Below are positions 15,988 through 31,834 of a stretch of 32,000 nucleotides of DNA, in pieces (position 1 is the stretch's first letter; each line of letters starts with the position of its first letter). Under the pieces are notes generated by a model. That model was not told the origin of the DNA. It was given only the letters and a program-made list of their open reading frames with translations, and did no database searches. Location of the stretch: positions 1,260,001 to 1,292,000 of the forward strand of contig NZ_CP147990.1 in NCBI RefSeq assembly GCF_037902255.1. The letters run 5' to 3'. Source of the DNA: Candidatus Electrothrix sp. GW3-4 (GTDB lineage: Bacteria; Desulfobacterota; Desulfobulbia; Desulfobulbales; Desulfobulbaceae). Both the position numbers and the translations under genes were made by a program.

Positions 15988-17511
15988 ATGTCGGGTGGAG
16001 AAAATTTAAAGCGTATACTTGATCAGATTTGTCGAGATAAAGGCATTGATCGCGCATTAATGGTAGATGCCATCGAGGAAGCTGTACGATCCGCAGTGCG
16101 AAAAAAATTCGGCGGTCGACGTGATATAGAGGTCCAGTTTAACGAAGAGCTTGGTGAAATTGAGGCCTTTCAGTATCGTACAGTGGTCGACGATGTTTGG
16201 GATGAGGATACTGAAATCCACATCGACGACGCAAGAGAGCTTGATCCAGATATTGAACTTGAGGATGATCTCGGCGAAAAAATGGAGAATATTGCCGAGC
16301 TTGGGCGTATTGCGGCGCAGTCTGCCAAACAGGTTATCATTCATCGCCTCAGAGATGCGGAGCGCGAAGTTGTTTTTGATATGTACCGTGACCGGGAAGG
16401 CTCCATAGTGAACGGCATTGTGCAGCGATTTGAACGTGGGAAGATGGTTGTCAATCTGGGCCGAACAGATGCCGTGTTACCCCGTGAAGGGCAGATCCCT
16501 AAAAGATCCTTTAAACAAGGGGATCGTATTCGTGCTTATCTTCAGGAGGTGCGCCAGGACGCCCGCGATTTTCAATTGGTCCTGAGTCGGACCTGTAATG
16601 AATTTTTGATCAAGCTGTTTGAGCTGGAAGTGCCAGAAATTTCTGAGCAGATTGTGAAAATTATGGGTGCGGCCCGCGAACCGGGATTTCGCGCCAAAAT
16701 TGCCGTCACCTCAACGGAATCTGATGTGGATCCTGTAGGCGCCTGTGTGGGAATGAAAGGTGCAAGGGTACAAAACGTGGTGGAAGAGCTGCAAGGGGAA
16801 CGTATTGATATTGTGCCCTGGAGCCCAGATCCGGCAAAATACGTCTATAATGCCTTGGCTCCGGCTGAAGTGAGTATGGTGATCGTGGATGAGGAGCAGC
16901 ATTCTCTGCTGGTTGTTGTCCCGGACGATCAGCTTTCGTTGGCCATAGGGCGGCAGGGGCAGAACGTGCGTCTTGCCTCCCGGCTGCTGAACTGGCGTAT
17001 TGACGTGAAGAGTGAACAGCGCTATGAAAATCTGAGCAAGCCCGAATATAAAACCCTGTTAGCCATCGATGGAGTTGACGAGGCAAGGGCGGATAAATTG
17101 CTTGGGGCGGGCATTCATTCAGCGGTAGAGTTTTCCGAAGCTGATATTGACACGATTATGCGACTTGTTGGCGTTGGCGAAGATCAGGCGGCTATGCTAA
17201 AATTGCAGGCTGCGGATATCCCTGTGCCGGAAGGCGGTGTAGCTGAGGAAGCTGAACGCCTTTTTTCTGCCCCAATTGAGCAAGAAGAAGAGGTGCCAGA
17301 GGATCAGAGAGGCAATGTCATCACGGAAAACAGCATGGAAGAAGAGCCCTCACCGCAGCAGAATGTCGCGAATGAGGTGGAAGATAAGGAGGCAATGCCT
17401 GGAAATAGGGTTGAGCCGGAAGATATGAAGGGGAATGTGCTGTCACAGCCTGCTCCAGAGCAGGAAATATCATCCTCGCACGACACTGTTGATGGTAATA
17501 GGCTGTCCTGA
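15988..17511 (+). CDS. nusA: Transcription termination/antitermination factor NusA
   Basis: 507 aa. The order is an N-terminal domain, an S1 domain (GSIVNGIVQRFERGKMVVNLG), two KH domains (DPVGACVGMKGARVQ, LAIGRQGQNVRLAS), one HhH-like repeat and an acidic low-complexity tail. Confidence 0.95.
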   Translation: MSGGENLKRILDQICRDKGIDRALMVDAIEEAVRSAVRKKFGGRRDIEVQFNEELGEIEAFQYRTVVDDVWDEDTEIHIDDARELDPDIELEDDLGEKMENIAELGRIAAQSAKQVIIHRLRDAEREVVFDMYRDREGSIVNGIVQRFERGKMVVNLGRTDAVLPREGQIPKRSFKQGDRIRAYLQEVRQDARDFQLVLSRTCNEFLIKLFELEVPEISEQIVKIMGAAREPGFRAKIAVTSTESDVDPVGACVGMKGARVQNVVEELQGERIDIVPWSPDPAKYVYNALAPAEVSMVIVDEEQHSLLVVVPDDQLSLAIGRQGQNVRLASRLLNWRIDVKSEQRYENLSKPEYKTLLAIDGVDEARADKLLGAGIHSAVEFSEADIDTIMRLVGVGEDQAAMLKLQAADIPVPEGGVAEEAERLFSAPIEQEEEVPEDQRGNVITENSMEEEPSPQQNVANEVEDKEAMPGNRVEPEDMKGNVLSQPAPEQEISSSHDTVDGNRLS

Positions 17512-17526
17512 AGCTGCGTAAGAAGC

Positions 17527-17760
17527 TTGAGAATCGAGGTGAAGCGGGGGCATGTCCCGATTCGCACCTGCAAAGGATGCGGACGGAAGGCAGAAAAGAG
17601 TGAGTTTATTCGCTTGGTATGGTGTGAGGGCGCCTTGCAGGAGGATTTGGACGGCAGAATGTCTGGTCGTGGGGTGTACAGCTGCAGCAATGAGCAGTGC
17701 AGAAATCGGCTGGCAAAACAGAAGAAAATGCTGAGGCGAGCATTTCGCCTTCATGGATAA
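17527..17760 (+). CDS. ylxR: YlxR/DUF448-family RNA-binding protein
   Basis: 77 aa containing [18 protein letters not shown] and GRGVY.C. It occupies the conserved position between nusA and infB. Confidence 0.8.
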
Positions 17761-17824
17761 CTTAACGTGTAACTTAGAACTTGAGTTAACGCAATACCAA
17801 GAGAAAAGGTTACGGGAGTACTTG

Positions 17825-20503
17825 ATGAGCAGAGTCCGCATTTACGAACTGGCAAAAGAAGCCGGTCTCAAAAGCAAAGAGCTGGCAGATAAATTGATAG
17901 CAATGGGATATCCTATCAAGAGCCTCAGTTCTACGGTTGACGACGATATGGCTGCCGATATTCGCCGTAAAGTGTTGGGCAAGGCAACTGCTGAAGTTAC
18001 CGAAAAGCCGATAGGGATGAAAAAACAAACAGCTGTGGTACGAAAAAAGAAAAATGCAACAGTGGTTCGACGTCGTTCAAAAGCATTGAAAGATGAGATT
18101 GCCAAAAAGGCAGAAGCGAAAGAGCAGGACGGGAAAGACAAGGTGAGAGCAGCATTAAAAGATGAGGTCCCTGCGACAGCAGATACGGTATCGCAGCCGC
18201 TTGAAACGGAAGCGGAGCGTCCTGCTCAACAGCAAGCAGTGGAAGATACTATGGACGCTGCTGCCAAGGGCGATGGCAAAGAGGGAAAGGCTGGCACAGC
18301 AGAAGTAGCTGTGCAGAAAAACAATGAAACCAGTATCCAGAAAAAGACTTCGCCTAAAAAAGAAGTGAAGCGTGCCAAAGGGCTTGCCAAGATCGTTGGC
18401 CGGGTAGAGTTGAATCTTGAAGATACCGAGAAACCAGCACCGCGCCGTACTCCTCGGCCAGCAAGAGGAGCCAGAAAGGGCGGACAGGCCGAAGTGGATC
18501 CAGCTGTCCAGAATCCTGCATCGGCTGCCAGCCGGGGCAAGGACCGGAAGAAAAATAAGCGCGTTGTTGCGATAGAGTCGGAAAAGGAAAGTCGGGCCAA
18601 GAAAACCAGTAAGCCTGCCCGCAAAGGTCGTCAGCGGGTGGATTTTTCCTTGGGCGGTGGCGAGTATACACCGTACAGAGGACGGAGAAAGAAAGATAAG
18701 CGGCGCAAAAGCAAGATTTCTTCTACACCGGTAACAGAGAGTAAGGCCATTAAAAGGCGTATTAAGGTCTTTGAGAGCATCAACGTCGGTGACTTGGCCA
18801 AACGCATGGGGATTAAGGCCAATGAGGTTATCGCAAAGTTGATGGGACTCGGCGTTATGGCCACCCTGAATCAGGCCCTTGATCTGGATACAGCGACCTT
18901 GGTGGCAGCGGATTTTGGCTATGAAGTTGAGCAGGGGATGACCGAAGAGCTGGGGGTTGAGGCGCTGCAGGAAGGGGAAAAAGGGGGAGAAAAACTTCCT
19001 CGTTTTCCAGTGGTCACTGTTATGGGTCATGTTGACCACGGCAAGACCTCTATCCTGGATGCTATTCGGAGAACGGATGTTGCCGAGGGCGAGGCAGGTG
19101 GGATTACCCAGCATATTGGTGCCTATCATGTTCAGGCCCCGTCAGGAGATATCACCTTTGTTGACACCCCTGGCCATGCTGCTTTTACGGAAATGCGTTC
19201 CCGTGGTGCCAAGGTCACAGATATCGTGGTGCTGGTTGTTGCTGCTGACGACGGGGTCATGAATCAGACCAAGGAGGCCATTGCCCACGCTAAGGCGGCT
19301 GAGGTCCCCATTGTAGTAGCAATCAATAAGATTGATAAGGATAATGCTGACCCGTCCCGTGTTATTCGCGAGCTGGGTGACTTTGGCCTGATTCCTGAGG
19401 ACTGGGGTGGTGATACAATTTTTTGTGAAACCTCAGCAAAAAAAGGACTTGGTATTGAGGCGTTGCTTGAGAATGTTCAGTTGCAGGCTGAGGTTCTTGA
19501 ATTAACAGCAGATCCAAATCGAAAAGCCCAGGGAACCGTGATTGAGGCCCAACTGCATAAAGGGAGGGGCTCTGTTGCAACGGTGCTGGTACAGGAAGGA
19601 ACCCTGCGCACTGGCGAATATTTTATTGCAGGGCAATACAGCGGTAAGGTGCGCTCTCTGATTAATGATCGGGGAGAACAGGTTGATGAAGCAGGACCTT
19701 CCCTCCCTGTTGAGGTGCAGGGGCTATCCGGTGTACCACAGGCTGGCGACGAGTTTTTAGTGGTCACGGATGAGAAAATGGCGAAATCTGTTTCCGATGC
19801 CCGCCAGCTCAAGGTTCGTGAGTCAGAATTGGCGTCTGCCTCCAAGGTCTCTTTGGATAATCTCTTTGAGAAGATGGCTGAGCAGGAGATGAAGGAACTG
19901 CGGGTTGTGCTTCGTTCCGATGTTCAGGGAACATTACAGGCTTTTGGCCAGGCAGCAGAAAAATTATCCACTGATGTTATTCGGGTACGGGTGCTTCATG
20001 AGGGGACCGGTGCGGTCACGGAAAATGATATCCATCTTGCTTCTGCATCTGATGCAATTATTATCGGATTTAATGTCCGTCCTTCGGTTAAGGTGAAGGA
20101 GCTTGCTGAACAGGAGCAGGTTGATATCCGGACTTACGATGTTATCTATCATGCCCTGGAAGATATTGAAAAGGCGATGGTGGGTATGCTTGAGCCGGAG
20201 TATGAAGAGCGTGTTATCGGTACTGCTGAGGTCCGGGATACCTTTTCCGTACCCAAGATTGGAACTATTGCTGGTTGCTTTGTTATCGATGGCAAGATTG
20301 AGCGCAACGCAGGCATTCGGGTTCTGCGCGACTCCGTTGTCATATACACGGGTGTTATCAGCTCACTCAGGCGCTTCAAAGACGATGTCAAAGAAGTGGC
20401 CACGGGCTACGAGTGTGGAATCGGGGTGGAGAATTACAACGATATTAAGGTCGGTGACACCCTTGAGGCCTTTCTCATGGACGAGGTCGAGGCAACACTC
20501 TAA
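17825..20503 (+). CDS. infB: Translation initiation factor IF-2
   Basis: The ORF track starts at 17753. The conserved IF2 N-domain [20 protein letters not shown] starts at ATG 17825, 7 nt after GGGAG. The G-domain motifs are [14 protein letters not shown] and NKID, and the C-terminal domains are intact. Confidence 0.95.
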
Positions 20504-25803: not shown

Positions 25804-27060
25804 TTAATTGAGCTCTTGAGCAGCAAGTGGGATTATTTTGGCCAGTTGGATCCTGGTCAGGGCCTGATTACCGTCTTTGTCCAGGATGGCAATGAGGTGA
25901 AAGGGAACAACGGATGCATCTCCAGAAGCGCAGAGGATAATGACGAAATCCCGTGTTTTTAGAGTTAGTTCGTTGCAGACATGGAGCCCTGAGGTCGCAG
26001 CGGTCTCCTGGGCAGAACGAAAGACATCATTAAAAACTGCGCCAGCACGTGCAAGATTAAGATTTGAGTCAAGACAGTCCGAGGCAAGAGTCTCTCCGCT
26101 AAAATCCATAATTCCTGAGCCCTTGTATCCTTTTATCCCTCGGAGCCTTTCCAGAATTGATTCCAGGTTACCTGTGCAACCTTCTGCTGAACAGGAGGGC
26201 TGTGGTGGAACCCTGTCTTGTTCCGCGACCTCAGTTGCTCGTGGCGGTTGAGCAGTAGGCATGATGATCGGATCATCCTCTTCATCGTCATCATCTCTGA
26301 CAGATTGGTGCCAGTCCCCTTCAAATACCCTGTGACGCTGTTCTCCGTCATTGGTCTGGGGAGGGAGCTCCAGCTCACAGAGCTTGACCTCATCTTTCAG
26401 TTTCATGGCGTCCATAATGATGGACATCAATTCTCCTTTGATTCTTCGCCGAATTTCCAGTTTGGGTAATGCTTTGATCTTAAAGCTGACATTGTCCATA
26501 GCGATCAGGCGACAAGCCGCCTCATATTCCTGCAGGTCTCCGTATTCGGCATCATAGAGTTTGCCCTGATGGATGTACAGAAGGCCTTTGTTTCTCGGTG
26601 ATGTCCCTACTTCAAGTAAACAGGTTTTTTCATCCATTTCCAGTAGCTGTAAAAATGATCCCACGGAAACGCCCTTGAGATTTCCGCTGGCAATATCCTC
26701 ATTGAGAATATTGGTCACGATCTTCACCAGCTGCTTCACCCGGATTGGCTTCAAGAGAATTTCTCGTACCCTACCTTCCAGTGCGGTTACTTTTTCTTCA
26801 TCTTTACATCCTGTGATGACTACAATGGGAATGTTTGGGTGAAAATTCTCTATATATTCTATAAGATGCCATCCATTGATTTCGCCCGGCATGATGAGGT
26901 CTGTCACAAGCAGGGAGATTTCCACCTGACCTAATATTTCGATGGCCTCTTTGCCGTTGCTGGCATAGACAGGGGTAAAAAAATCGCCGTAATCCTTCAA
27001 TTGCTCTTCCAGGAGAGCAAGTGCGAACAGATCATCATCAACGACCAGAATATCGTACAT
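25804..27060 (-). CDS. Orphan response regulator: REC + PATAN/DUF4388 + acidic Pro-rich linker + Roadblock/LC7-like domain
   Basis: The REC domain keeps its acceptor residues (VVDDD, LLVTDLIMPG, VVITG, LLKP). The middle segment GNLKGVSVGSFLQLLEMDEKTCLLEV...LYIHQGKLYDAEYGDLQEYEAA fits DUF4388. The C-terminal segment LERLRGIKGYKGSGIMDFSGETLA...FHLIAILDKDGNQALTRIQL fits the Roadblock/MglB pattern. AAGGAG lies upstream of the ATG. Confidence 0.75.
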   Translation of the reverse strand: MYDILVVDDDLFALALLEEQLKDYGDFFTPVYASNGKEAIEILGQVEISLLVTDLIMPGEINGWHLIEYIENFHPNIPIVVITGCKDEEKVTALEGRVREILLKPIRVKQLVKIVTNILNEDIASGNLKGVSVGSFLQLLEMDEKTCLLEVGTSPRNKGLLYIHQGKLYDAEYGDLQEYEAACRLIAMDNVSFKIKALPKLEIRRRIKGELMSIIMDAMKLKDEVKLCELELPPQTNDGEQRHRVFEGDWHQSVRDDDDEEDDPIIMPTAQPPRATEVAEQDRVPPQPSCSAEGCTGNLESILERLRGIKGYKGSGIMDFSGETLASDCLDSNLNLARAGAVFNDVFRSAQETAATSGLHVCNELTLKTRDFVIILCASGDASVVPFHLIAILDKDGNQALTRIQLAKIIPLAAQELN

Positions 27061-28908: not shown

Positions 28909-31053
28909 GTGGACTTGCTGGAACAGATTATCACCGGATTACGCTGGCTGAAGGATAACCCGGAAGTAACGTGGAGTGGCATTGGGACTACTCTCTTGGT
29001 TTCAGCATGTTCTTGGCTTTATGCCCGTCTCCGCAAACCCGATGCCTCTTCCGGTACACACCATGCCGACGAATGGCTGACCAGGAATCGGCATAAGCTG
29101 ATCAGTCGTCTGCAATGGGAGCTGAAAGACCGTCAACAGTCCTTCCTGCTCGGCCGGACTTCTCTGGACCTGGACAAGAGCATGGATCCGAACCGAGTGA
29201 GCCGCCCCTATTGCATCTGGCAGCGAGACGGGGTGCCGGTCAAAAACATGGGTCAACCCATTGTCAATCTCTTTCTCCACCCTGAAGTCAACGAGCAGCT
29301 GGCGATTCTGGGTAAGCCGGGCAGCGGCAAGACCGTGTGCCTGCTCAAGCTGCTTGAGCATCTGTTGCAAAAGGCCGAGGACAACCCCGCACTTCCTCTG
29401 CCTGTCGTCTTTGAGTGCTCGGAATGGGACGGCAGCAAGCTTCCCCTGTGGCTGGCCGCGCAGCTGCAGCTGGACCGAAGATACTCTTTTCCAAAGGATA
29501 CGGCCCTTCGGGCAGTCCGGGAGCAGGACATCCTGCCCCTGTTTGACGGTCTGGACGAATTGGCAACGGAACAGCAGGGAGACTTTGTCCGGGGCTTTAA
29601 TGCCTTTGCCGAAAATCGGCCGTTGGCGCTCTGCTGTCGGAAGCAGGAGTACGACCATTTGCTGAACAATGCAGGGGAGAAACTGGCTCTCAGGAATGCG
29701 GCGATCCTTCACGATATCAATCCGCAGCGGCTTAGGGAACATCTCCTGCGGGAAGGGCTGGATGACCTCTGGACGCTGCTTGAGCAGTCTGAGCACGAGG
29801 CGGAGCCATCATCCACGGAATCAGCGGAGGAGGAACAGAACGAAGAACACCAGCAGGCCCTGTTGCAATTGGCCCGACGGCCCCTGTTTCTCGGTCTGAT
29901 GATCGAGGTGTCTGAGGATCTCTGCCAGGGTTCAGGGCGGCAGCCGGGTGAAACCTGGGAGGACTTCCTCTGGCGGCAGTATCTGGATAACTGGCTGGCC
30001 CCGAACCCGCCTCCTCGTCTCCGGTCGCCGGATGGTTATGCCGGGAAGTACAGCAAGGAGCAGTCCCTGCACTGGCTGCATTGTCTGGCACGATGGATGC
30101 AGTCAGAAAACACGGTGGCTTTGCAGATTGATGAACTCCAGCCGAGTATTTTGAAGGGGTATTGGCGGTTCGGGCTTCTCTATGGGCTATTTTACGCTCT
30201 GGCTTTTGGTCTGATGTTCTCGCTGTATGACGGGCCGAGATTAGGGGCAGTAGCCGGACTGGCTGCATGGCTGCTTTACGGCCTGCCCGGCTGCTTACCA
30301 CGGCAATGGCTGACAAAAATTAAAATCATCACCGGGCTGTCCTGGGGAGGGTTCGGTTTGCTGGCGTACGGGCCGGTATTCGGTCTAATGCTCGGGCTGG
30401 TCTTTATGCTGATAGCGCATAACGAGCAGATCTGGATTTATCCCCTCAACTCTGTCCGTTTTCCTGCCTTCTTTCGAGTCGTTGATCGGTCGTTTGCTTT
30501 AGCTTTCGGTCTGCTCTTAGGGCTGGTTTTCGGTCTGATTCAGGCGGGAATATTCGACCCGTGGCTATTGCTGGCCTTCACGTCGGCTTTAGGGCTGGGT
30601 CTCATCCTGCTTGTCGGAATGGCTGAGGGACTAAGAATGGTGGGCAATAGGCTCCGCAGAACTGTCCGGATCCAAGACCGACTCAATGAGGCAAAGCTCA
30701 GCAGTCTGCTGCTCTTGCCGCTCTTCCTTCTTGCAGCCATGCTGGTCTTTGTCCAAGTTCTCTTGCTCGCTGAAGAGCAAGGGATAGCTGTCAGTCCTTT
30801 TTTCACATTGCGCAATTTGTATTTGGTTTTGTTCATGGCGGGAATCGGTAGTTTTTTTCTCCTCGGTACCAACGAAGTCCTCCAACATTATCTTCTTCGC
30901 CTCTGTCTTTGGCAGGAAAAACAACTCCCCCTACGCCTCGTCCCTTGGCTGGCGGCTGTTCACCAGCGTAAGGTGCTGCAACGGGCAGGCGGCAGCTACC
31001 ATTTCCTGCATAAACAGCTTCAGGAATATCTGGCAAAGCAGCAGGCTCTGTGA
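28909..31053 (+). CDS. NACHT-type STAND NTPase with a polytopic (about 8 TM) glycine-zipper membrane block
   Basis: The start is GTG 28909 after AAGAGGGA. Motifs are Walker A ILGKPGSGKT (29311-29334), Walker B LPLFDGLDE (29533-29559), LALCCRKQEY, ARRPLFLGLM, and a terminal GGSYHFLHKQLQEYLA. Residues about 417-655 form about 8 hydrophobic helices rich in GxxxG. Confidence 0.8.
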   Translation: MDLLEQIITGLRWLKDNPEVTWSGIGTTLLVSACSWLYARLRKPDASSGTHHADEWLTRNRHKLISRLQWELKDRQQSFLLGRTSLDLDKSMDPNRVSRPYCIWQRDGVPVKNMGQPIVNLFLHPEVNEQLAILGKPGSGKTVCLLKLLEHLLQKAEDNPALPLPVVFECSEWDGSKLPLWLAAQLQLDRRYSFPKDTALRAVREQDILPLFDGLDELATEQQGDFVRGFNAFAENRPLALCCRKQEYDHLLNNAGEKLALRNAAILHDINPQRLREHLLREGLDDLWTLLEQSEHEAEPSSTESAEEEQNEEHQQALLQLARRPLFLGLMIEVSEDLCQGSGRQPGETWEDFLWRQYLDNWLAPNPPPRLRSPDGYAGKYSKEQSLHWLHCLARWMQSENTVALQIDELQPSILKGYWRFGLLYGLFYALAFGLMFSLYDGPRLGAVAGLAAWLLYGLPGCLPRQWLTKIKIITGLSWGGFGLLAYGPVFGLMLGLVFMLIAHNEQIWIYPLNSVRFPAFFRVVDRSFALAFGLLLGLVFGLIQAGIFDPWLLLAFTSALGLGLILLVGMAEGLRMVGNRLRRTVRIQDRLNEAKLSSLLLLPLFLLAAMLVFVQVLLLAEEQGIAVSPFFTLRNLYLVLFMAGIGSFFLLGTNEVLQHYLLRLCLWQEKQLPLRLVPWLAAVHQRKVLQRAGGSYHFLHKQLQEYLAKQQAL

Positions 31054-31175: not shown

Positions 31176-31658
31176 ATGAACAAAGAATTCGTCTACCTTG
31201 AAACAAGTTTTGTCAGTTATCTCACTGCCCGACCAAGCAGAGATCTTATCGTCTCCGCCCATCAGACTATAAGCCAGGAGTGGTGGGAGCAAAGAAGAAG
31301 CTGTTTTGAAATCGTTATATCCGAAATCGTTGCAGAGGAAGCAGGGCAGGGGCACCCGGAAGCGGCACAGAGACGGTTGGACCTTCTCAGGGACATTCCT
31401 TTTATAGCTGTAACCGAAGAAGCGCTTGACTTTGCGGACAAGCTGATCCAAAGTGGAGCTGTTCCCCAAAAAGCGGCGCAGGATGCTCTGCACATCGCTG
31501 TCTGTTGTGTGAACAATGTGGATTTCCTGCTGACTTGGAACTGCAAGCATATTGCCAATGCAGAGAAAAGAGAAAGTATTCGGACTGCCGCTGTTGAGCA
31601 TGGCCTTATTGCACCGGTTATCTGTACCCCGGAAGAACTATTCGGAGATGAATTATGA
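31176..31658 (+). CDS. Divergent PIN-domain (VapC-like) protein
   Basis: 160 aa. VYLETSFVSYLTARPSRDLI...EEAG...AQDALHIAVCCV...FLLTWNCKHIAN matches a PIN-like family that I recall being annotated as a VapC-family toxin. Two of the four usual acidic positions read E and N. Confidence 0.75.
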   Translation: MNKEFVYLETSFVSYLTARPSRDLIVSAHQTISQEWWEQRRSCFEIVISEIVAEEAGQGHPEAAQRRLDLLRDIPFIAVTEEALDFADKLIQSGAVPQKAAQDALHIAVCCVNNVDFLLTWNCKHIANAEKRESIRTAAVEHGLIAPVICTPEELFGDEL

Positions 31659-31834
31659 TGGAAGACCCTATTGTAAAAGAAACACGAAAAATACGAGAGC
31701 AGATAGCCTCGGAACACAAATACGATGTGTATAAACTGGGTCGGTATTTCATGCGGAAGCAGCAGGTCGGACAACGGGTCTTTGTCACAATTCCACCTAA
31801 GATCGTCAAAAGGAGGTCCGTCCTCACCCCATAA
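31655..31834 (+). CDS. Small 59-aa partner protein, a putative antitoxin-like component
   Basis: I translated this myself because it is below the 60-aa cutoff of the track: MMEDPIVKETRKIREQIASEHKYDVYKLGRYFMRKQQVGQRVFVTIPPKIVKRRSVLTP. Its ATG overlaps the PIN stop (ATGA, 31655-31658). Confidence 0.55.
   Translation: MMEDPIVKETRKIREQIASEHKYDVYKLGRYFMRKQQVGQRVFVTIPPKIVKRRSVLTP

Follow-up and report, generated by a model that had tools for sequence, protein, structure and literature searches.

A cable-bacterial NACHT protein with a predicted membrane bundle inserted in its winged-helix domain

Our analysis of a 32,000-nt stretch of DNA from Candidatus Electrothrix sp. GW3-4 (contig NZ_CP147990.1, positions 1,260,001 to 1,292,000, hereafter the window) concerns a single gene, whose product is predicted to be a catalytically competent NACHT-clade STAND NTPase of the inner membrane of this cable bacterium. 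Its N-terminal helices are followed by a nucleotide-binding domain (NBD), helical domain 1 (HD1), the first half of a winged-helix domain (WHD), eight transmembrane (TM) helices, and the second half of the WHD. The insertion point lies past helix 1 and strand 1 of the WHD, and ahead of helix 3, the wing, and the ADP-sensing histidine. Taken alone, this split architecture, in which a NACHT switch carries a block of about eight TM helices inside its WHD, is very likely correct. The likeliest reading of its function, drawn from the architecture and from the relatives, is a single-gene, membrane-sensing switch for conflict or cell death, which would be triggered through the TM bundle and have a local membrane output in this effector-less protein; we give it a probability of about one half. 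The gene is a further member of a recorded, but experimentally uncharacterised, class of NACHT proteins with TM regions. The insertion point, the topology, the size of the clade, its effector repertoire, and a fast-evolving cable-bacterial family are new in this analysis.

A membrane block between two halves of a winged helix

The gene is one uninterrupted open reading frame (ORF) on the forward strand of the window (28909-31053, GTG start, stop included). Its 714-aa product is 100% identical to P0001, a 'NACHT domain-containing protein' of Candidatus Electrothrix sp. GW3-4. The features of the gene are given below with their window coordinates, strand, and supporting evidence (AF2 is AlphaFold2, pLDDT its local confidence score, and KD the hydropathy scale).

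28909..31053, +, whole gene, encoding a predicted membrane-embedded NACHT protein (ORF call, Pfam, 100% identity to P0001)
28972..29031, +, weakly hydrophobic N-terminal helix, aa 22-41 (mean KD 0.89), followed by RKP (hydropathy, AF2)
29062..29148, +, long conserved helix ahead of the NTPase domain, aa 52-80 (AF2 pLDDT 78-90, family profile)
29281..29778, +, NBD of the NACHT module, aa 125-290 (Pfam PF05729, Foldseek)
29311..29334, +, Walker A GKPGSGKT, aa 135-142 (motif and alignment conservation)
29530..29559, +, Walker B and NACHT signature ILPLFDGLDE, aa 208-217 (motif and conservation)
29623..29652, +, sensor-1 strand LALCCRKQEY, aa 239-248, with R244 (alignment, AF2 strand E239-244)
29779..30042, +, HD1, aa 291-378 (alignment, AF2)
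30043..30159, +, first WHD half, aa 379-417, with helix 1 (383-399, LHWLHCLARWM) and strand 1 (404-405), leading into TM1 (conservation, AF2, hhalign)
30160..30864, +, predicted eight-helix membrane block within the winged helix, aa 418-652 (hydropathy, AF2, loop charge)
30865..31050, +, second WHD half, aa 653-714, with helix 654-669, helix 3 (677-686), beta-hairpin 690-693/696-699, and final helix 702-710 (AF2, conservation, hhalign)
30988..31035, +, C-terminal WHD motif GGSYHFLHKQLQEYLA, aa 694-709, with H701 (HMMER against NLRC4, conservation)

Both flanks of the membrane block are conserved in an alignment of 32 homologues (23-63% identity). The N-side flank (aa 379-416) follows the pattern Y..Q..hWL..LA..M....tEl.i.eLqP..L, and the C-side flank (aa 655-710) the pattern qH..lR..L....lPlr...fL.....r.lLrrvGG.Y.FiH..LqEYlA. 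The near-invariant residues on the C side include R664, L667, P674 and L681, as well as G694, F699, H701, L704 and A709 of the terminal motif. The two halves surround a hydrophobic insert of 117-590 aa (median 241) in 242 of the 260 relatives that we collected, and the split arrangement is therefore neither a chance nor an assembly artefact.

When the TM block was deleted from 13 diverse members, all of the resulting chimeras matched the NACHT profile. We compared their alignment by hhalign with an alignment of six bacterial NACHT proteins with contiguous WHDs (bNACHT01, 02, 04, 11, 12 and 22, with sequences from Table S2 of Kibby et al.). The result was a single continuous alignment over the deletion junction, from NBD through HD1 to WHD (97.6% probability, E 2.7e-12, 279 columns). 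It pairs the family pattern lP.lr..fLd....r..lrrvG.g.Y.FiH with PENLAVDFVDVTCLIQREGYNKYIFI of bNACHT01, such that helix 3, the wing, and the histidine are in register with the contiguous WHDs. The TM-deleted profile also matches NLRC4 (E 1.7e-5) and NLRP3 in the PDB. A second HMMER segment, weak when taken alone (0.7 bits), pairs rrvGgsyrFiHklLqeylak with residues 433-452 of NLRC4 and places H701 on His443. We take His443 to be the residue that contacts ADP in autoinhibited NLRC4, and H701 to be its counterpart here.

Structure prediction agrees with these alignments. The AF2 model made from the 32-sequence alignment (mean pLDDT 80.6, predicted template-modelling score 0.75) has its elements in the following order, where H is helix and E is strand: H383-399, E404-405, the eight block helices (418-441, 443-462, 465-487, 489-502 and, past a low-confidence loop, 527-545, 551-583, 588-623 and 634-651), H654-669, H677-686, E690-693, E696-699 and H702-710. 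The pLDDT is 83-91 across the first WHD half; for the second, it is 82-93 in most places. As modelled, this order fits a winged helix-turn-helix (helix, strand, helix, helix, hairpin) whose first strand leads into the membrane helices. A Foldseek search of the PDB with the model ranked NOD2 first (5irm, E 1.1e-7), followed by NLRC4, NLRP3, NLRP9, and other NLRs, which identifies the NBD-HD1-WHD part as NLR-like. The hhalign junction, the alignment with H443 of NLRC4, and the element order in AF2 together place a WHD with its conserved histidine after the AAA+ core, the WHD being split.

A preliminary description of this stretch, made from the sequence alone, had proposed that the C-terminal motif is the histidine motif of a WHD interrupted by some eight TM helices, spanning aa ~417-655. 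Conservation, hhalign, the NLRC4 match, AF2, and the topology bear out this proposal, and the predicted secondary structure fits a winged helix completed by the terminal segment. The motif was rightly located at the C-terminus (aa 694-709), but what lies beyond the block is not just the last ~20 residues, since about 60 residues follow it. The membrane block itself was also correctly described: hydropathy gives seven to eight hydrophobic segments in aa 421-657 and, when combined with the AF2 secondary structure, eight helices within aa 418-652. In the resulting eight-TM topology, the inside loops contain 12 lysines and arginines and the outside loops only one, and the outside loops are 1-13 aa long. 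Because of this positive-inside charge count and of these short outer loops, the prediction puts both WHD halves in the cytoplasm and gives the protein almost no periplasmic exposure. With eight helices between its WHD halves, the protein belongs among the NACHTs with multiple TM regions C-terminal to, or inserted in, the NACHT module.

That the two halves pack as one domain is suggested by secondary structure and alignments. A mean-field direct coupling analysis between the halves (237 sequences, effective number about 215), cleaned after gap artefacts had dominated a first run, gave top inter-half scores of 3.44 and 3.16, which are not significant against a permutation-null maximum of 4.05 +/- 1.6. 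The pairs Q406-S696 and D408-G695 sit where pairing of strands beta1 and beta3 is expected, but they are not significant either. These results, and the weakness of the NLRC4 match of the motif when taken alone, would also fit a protein in which the WHD is not truly split, made of NBD and HD1 with a C-terminal membrane anchor, and in which the terminal motif is a short tail in the cytosol, either coincidental or independent. We regard this as very improbable, because no part of the protein is more conserved than its C-terminal ~55 aa (77% among cable bacteria), which are present in the same 242 relatives. Moreover, their alignment with contiguous WHDs keeps helix 3, the wing, and the histidine in register, AF2 gives them a confident helix-helix-hairpin-helix, and the predicted topology brings them back into the cytoplasm.

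The membrane block is rich in glycine (11.8% against 5.3% elsewhere in the protein) and contains nine GxxxG motifs, against one elsewhere. Its most basic cytoplasmic loop is at aa 574-597, with seven lysines and arginines. At the same place (window 30628-30699), just ahead of TM7, the family profile has the motif tPNQGIrrS, conserved at 70-77% and degenerate here (RIQDRLNEAKLSS). Block lengths over the family cluster near 180-219, 240-259 and 290-309 aa, i.e. in steps of about 50 aa, as if TM hairpins had been gained or lost. At window 30170-30612, degenerate direct DNA repeats (60-79% identity, some of them at a 12-nt spacing) code for FGLxxGLxF units in TM1, TM4, TM5 and TM6, and these repeats fit the ~50-aa steps. 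A crude count of TM parity over the family (139 even, 103 odd) was discarded, because the same counter gives seven helices, not eight, for the reference protein.

The rest of the protein is that of a NACHT NTPase. Pfam NACHT (PF05729) matches aa 131-287 with 38.2 bits, above its gathering cutoff of 26.7, and the four motifs by which a complete NACHT core had been recognised earlier (GKPGSGKT, DGLDE, CCRKQEY and RRPLFLGLM) are all at the positions then given. Walker A fits GxxxxGK[ST], and DGLDE (213-217) fits D[GAS]hDE, the NACHT-defining signature of Kibby et al. The 32-sequence alignment shows G135, P137, G138, G140, K141 and T142 of Walker A and D213, G214, L215 and D216 of Walker B to be invariant, and C242, R244, E247 and Y248 of the sensor-1 strand to be nearly so. 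HD1 holds RRPLFLGLM at aa 323-331, with an invariant P325. Profile searches do not place the protein in a housekeeping NTPase family. As had been stated for this protein, its Pfam, NCBIfam, and PADLOC searches revealed no LRR, WD40, TPR, or enzymatic domain, at the N-terminus or elsewhere. No family matched the N-terminal 100 aa or the TM block when each was searched separately in Pfam, the NCBIfam search gave nothing significant, and a PDB sequence search with the native protein found no match.

The N-terminal region is variable and modelled with low confidence (AF2 helix H25-41, pLDDT 44-66 over aa 1-50). The helix at aa 22-41 is a possible single membrane anchor by prediction, and its counterpart in homologues is more hydrophobic. 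The following helix (aa 52-80) has the family consensus RNRqrLLerVr...gvLeqSL. HD1 includes an acidic, Ser/Glu-rich stretch, SEHEAEPSSTESAEEEQNEEH (window 29794-29856, aa ~296-316), predicted to be disordered (pLDDT <50 at 301-314). Several homologues have a shorter version of it or none; against P0002 and P0003, the alignment has 21 gap columns. A promoter and terminator scan around the gene did no better than on shuffled sequence.

A large family with varied effectors

The profile search was made over 1.84 billion representatives of 50%-identity clusters, and it retrieved 43,877 proteins with E<=1e-3; under the stricter limit of E<=1e-30 there were 10,700. All of the top 150 clusters have E <1e-141, and most of them span essentially the whole profile, including both WHD halves; by sequence, at least these 150 share the TM-in-WHD design, which probably extends to many more of the 10,700. 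We also scanned one genome per species, and the first 600 pattern matches included 294 relatives. The top 80 of these 294, most of which cover residues ~59-710 of the query, are dominated by filamentous cyanobacteria (Limnoraphis, Scytonema, Nostoc, Oscillatoria, Microcoleus, Symploca), by Chloroflexota (Anaerolineae, Ktedonobacteria, Chloroflexia, Ardenticatenaceae, Caldilinea), and by Nonomuraea, Calditrichaceae, Pyrinomonadaceae, and Hydrogenedentota. About 55 of these loci have an ORF that stops 18-30 aa past a motif such as LQKVGGGYIFIHRLLLEHFA. The clade is found mostly in filamentous cyanobacteria, Chloroflexota, and actinomycetes, plus cable bacteria.

Such proteins have been recorded before. 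The accessible text of Kibby et al. includes a category of bacterial NACHTs with TM regions, as a bioinformatic class described in one sentence, and our gene fits this description. That text is silent on the insertion point, the topology, the family size, and any experiment for the category, and Table S1 of the same work has no cable bacteria and no annotation of TM segments. Our literature search found no paper characterising a member of the family, or linking NACHT proteins with cable bacteria. Hence, the earlier remark that this topology had no characterised example holds in the literal sense, but a topology that is on record and shared by at least the top 150 clusters is neither rare nor unrecorded.

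The effector repertoire of the relatives is broad. The same TM-inserted core is fused to N-terminal Ser/Thr kinases (Pkinase, in L013, L023, L045 and L083), to CHAT peptidases (L022, L031, L040, L061, P0050 and P0056), and to a C-terminal caspase (Peptidase_C14, L028). It also occurs with Trypsin_2 (P0054), with EAD7 and a second NACHT (P0049), with a class 3 adenylate cyclase according to the source annotation (P0042), with BTAD (P0037), and with WD40 repeats (P0043). Such sets of effectors and adaptors match those of the NTP-dependent conflict and cell-death systems of multicellular bacteria in Kaur et al. The absence of an effector, noted in the preliminary description, is therefore a trait of this protein and not of the clade. 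Since the TM block stays constant while the effectors vary, it is more likely a sensor or regulatory module than a dedicated membrane-disrupting effector.

No conserved partner gene recurs over taxa in the 89 loci that we compared, and for this reason we consider the gene to be a single-gene module. Clusters of neighbours that seemed to recur were either ORFs antisense to the gene itself or the effect of synteny between Microcoleus strains. Two to five ORFs of the family are in tandem in 21 loci. Cyanobacteria have such arrays of 2-5 TM-inserted NACHT paralogues, some of them apparently fragmentary, in L005, L015, L052, L008, L010 and L022. Three distant members that we sampled adjoin genes of mobile elements or of toxin-antitoxin type: one actinobacterial member is next to TrwC and PIF1 (L088), another to FtsK/TraB-like, SpdB, RepSA, excisionase, and integrase genes (L090), and a third member to a HicB antitoxin gene (L089). 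The two actinobacterial loci share a downstream pair of acetyltransferase and GntR/UTRA genes (L088 10269-10962, L090 10789-12119), at the edge of integrative conjugative element genes.

Cable-bacterial copies and their surroundings

The family is present across Electrothrix and Electronema genomes, in some of them as paralogues (P0011 and P0029 in the Rat3 genome, P0024 and P0025 in E. aestuarii). The gene order is serA-NACHT in the window, serA-hemerythrin-NACHT in Electrothrix Rat3, and glyQ-NACHT-nadA in Electronema aureum; the neighbours are different again in three other cable-bacterial genomes. The context thus differs in four of the six genomes, and the adjacency to serA, which if conserved across the clade would have spoken against a patchily distributed defence gene, was seen in only two.

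The family is evolving fast in cable bacteria, to judge from sequence comparisons. In the one syntenic Electrothrix pair, pnp is 91.8% identical, serA 89.5%, and the response regulator 84.5%; the NACHT protein is only 54.6% identical. Among cable-bacterial homologues the mean identity is 77% in the second WHD half, 68% in the first half, 64% in the NBD, 59% in HD1, 48% at the N-terminus, and 37% in the TM block, the most variable part.

The neighbourhood of the gene has some features of its own. Just downstream, a 160-aa ORF (window 31176-31658, +) has a sub-threshold PIN match (E 0.0032, 18.5 bits for a cutoff of 23.6) and is overlapped by 4 nt by a 59-aa ORF (31655-31834); together they might form a toxin-antitoxin pair. 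In Electrothrix sp. Rat3, the NACHT orthologue is directly followed (L003 10105-10476) by a gene for a 123-aa protein made almost entirely of GNPPVT- and DDPLVT-like repeats. The response regulator between pnp and serA in both Electrothrix genomes is of the PatA_N/DUF4388 type (window 25804-27060, -; L003 3220-4497, -). Further away, window 17001-19000 has a strong AT-skew spike (0.16-0.34) in the 5' part of infB, which probably corresponds to an A-rich low-complexity N-terminal region of IF-2.

A membrane-sensing switch and its alternatives

Among known systems, the protein would work most like a bNACHT or NLR switch. bNACHT01 and the other clade-14 bNACHTs, which are experimentally anti-phage, likewise consist of a NACHT core encoded by a single gene without enzymatic effector; but they are soluble proteins whose WHD is contiguous and which have a short sensor domain at the C-terminus, whereas the protein studied here has eight TM helices in its WHD and ends right after it. 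The animal NLRs (NOD2, NLRC4, NLRP3) are its best structural matches and have in common with it the NBD-HD1-WHD core and the WHD histidine motif. They differ by their lack of TM segments, by their LRR sensors and CARD or PYD effectors, and by the HD2 that follows the WHD. In NLRC4, rotation of the WHD accompanies activation. In plants, resistosomes of the ZAR1 type, which are NB-ARC STAND proteins, oligomerise into a membrane-inserted assembly that causes cell death. These serve as a working analogy only for the membrane output of our protein: they belong to another STAND clade, are soluble at rest, and their membrane element is an N-terminal helix exposed on activation, not a TM bundle resident in the WHD. 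KAP P-loop NTPases (Aravind et al. 2004, Genome Biol 5:R30) also have TM segments inside an NTPase module related to STAND and AAA+. However, their TM helices interrupt the P-loop domain itself; our protein has an intact NBD and did not match KAP_NTPase in Pfam at E<=1, and it is therefore not a KAP NTPase. XssQ, a STAND regulator of Synechocystis, was rejected as a characterised relative, because it is an HTH-STAND protein without a described TM insert.

If the protein is a membrane-sensing switch, it would rest in a closed form with bound ADP and with His701 placed on the nucleotide. The WHD would be the lever, and a STAND protein is activated only once this lever has moved off the NBD. Since the membrane bundle is attached directly to both halves of the WHD, its rearrangement would be the obvious trigger, and a change in the bilayer could be passed directly through the bundle to the nucleotide pocket. 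Candidate cues would include the insertion of a foreign membrane protein, a lesion, the lipid state, and the membrane potential; given the 1-13-aa outer loops, a cue within the membrane is likelier than a periplasmic ligand. Nucleotide exchange and oligomerisation would then follow the rearrangement of the bundle. In relatives, oligomerisation would switch on the fused kinase, CHAT or caspase, trypsin, or cyclase effector. In the effector-less form, the clustered TM bundles and N-terminal helices would probably compromise the membrane locally, arresting or killing the affected cell of the filament. The gene family has several hallmarks of conflict systems, including fast divergence, a variable TM block, tandem arrays, adjacency to mobile elements or to HicB, and mostly filamentous hosts.

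Several observations pull the other way. None of the six cable-bacterial contexts is a defence island: the neighbours are mostly housekeeping genes, e.g. serA, glyQ, nadA, and rpoA-rplQ, and the only candidates of defence type near the NACHT gene are a Fic gene, a PDDEXK_2 gene, and the PIN-like ORF. PADLOC-DB v2 gave nothing significant, its best match being PDC-S60 over the NTPase region only (E 0.0028, 13.8 bits). Within cable bacteria the gene seems to have been inherited vertically, and base composition was dropped as a signal of transfer, since a GC content at third codon positions (GC3) of 0.64 lies inside the range of the window (0.45-0.72). We found no member tested experimentally in the literature, and the signals that the TM bundle might perceive are only candidates suggested by the mechanics of STAND proteins.

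Some of these facts would suit a membrane signalling or housekeeping STAND protein devoid of any role in conflict, e.g. in envelope or filament homeostasis, or a regulator similar to MalT, AfsR or XssQ. The gene is found across Electrothrix and Electronema, it adjoins serA in two genomes, it has neither defence neighbours nor a PADLOC hit, and a 2026 survey scored just 198 of 589 STAND clades as being associated with defence. Such a role is nevertheless unlikely, because the protein has diverged much faster than the genes in synteny with it, its context changes in most of the cable-bacterial genomes, and some of them carry paralogues. Elsewhere in the clade there are death or conflict effectors and EAD7, tandem arrays, and adjacency to mobile elements, and the protein itself lacks a DNA-binding output domain. 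It is also conceivable, though rather doubtful, that the TM block acts as the effector. A cytosolic cue would then be read by the NACHT core or the N-terminal region, and an NTP-driven oligomer would form a glycine-zipper pore leading to abortive infection, one of the roles that the preliminary description had suggested. Neither this protein nor most of its relatives of the ~650-750-aa class have any other candidate effector, which fits a TM block acting as output. The block is also rich in glycine zippers, its length varies in ~50-aa steps, and proteins with glycine zippers include membrane-damaging toxins, according to the accessible parts of PMC5380434 and PMC12955049. Yet, relatives with the same block carry classical effectors at their termini, and according to Kibby et al. 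the module that varies in STAND families is usually the effector, and the sensor is usually the one that tracks the NTPase clade. A pore-forming block would moreover leave the protein without a visible sensor domain, and an effector has no need to sit inside the WHD lever. We thus favour the membrane-sensing conflict switch, at the even odds given above.

Switches of the NLR type are central to the innate immunity of animals, plants, and bacteria. To our knowledge, every one of those characterised is a soluble receptor with its sensor after the winged helix, and we know of no characterised NLR of any kingdom with a resident intramembrane sensor. In the protein described here, the sensor position is taken by a membrane bundle that interrupts the winged helix itself. 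A specialist of STAND proteins would find this architecture unsurprising, but the clade is very large, and its insertion point, topology, and effector repertoire give a rationale for asking whether bacteria have an NLR that senses membrane integrity. K141, D213/E217, H701, and the basic loop at 574-597 are concrete targets for mutation. Cable bacteria, for their part, have a fast-evolving family of NLR-like genes of which we found no discussion in the literature searched. Finally, as a more speculative and on present evidence unlikely extension, the clade might be a membrane-surveillance arm of prokaryotic NLR immunity, reading the state of the bilayer (insertion of holins or injection machinery, depolarisation, lesions), with the effector-less oligomer making a resistosome-like lesion that sacrifices one cell of the filament. 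If this were true, the protein would be a cell-level fuse protecting the cable-bacterial filament, whose cells share their periplasm and conductive fibres.

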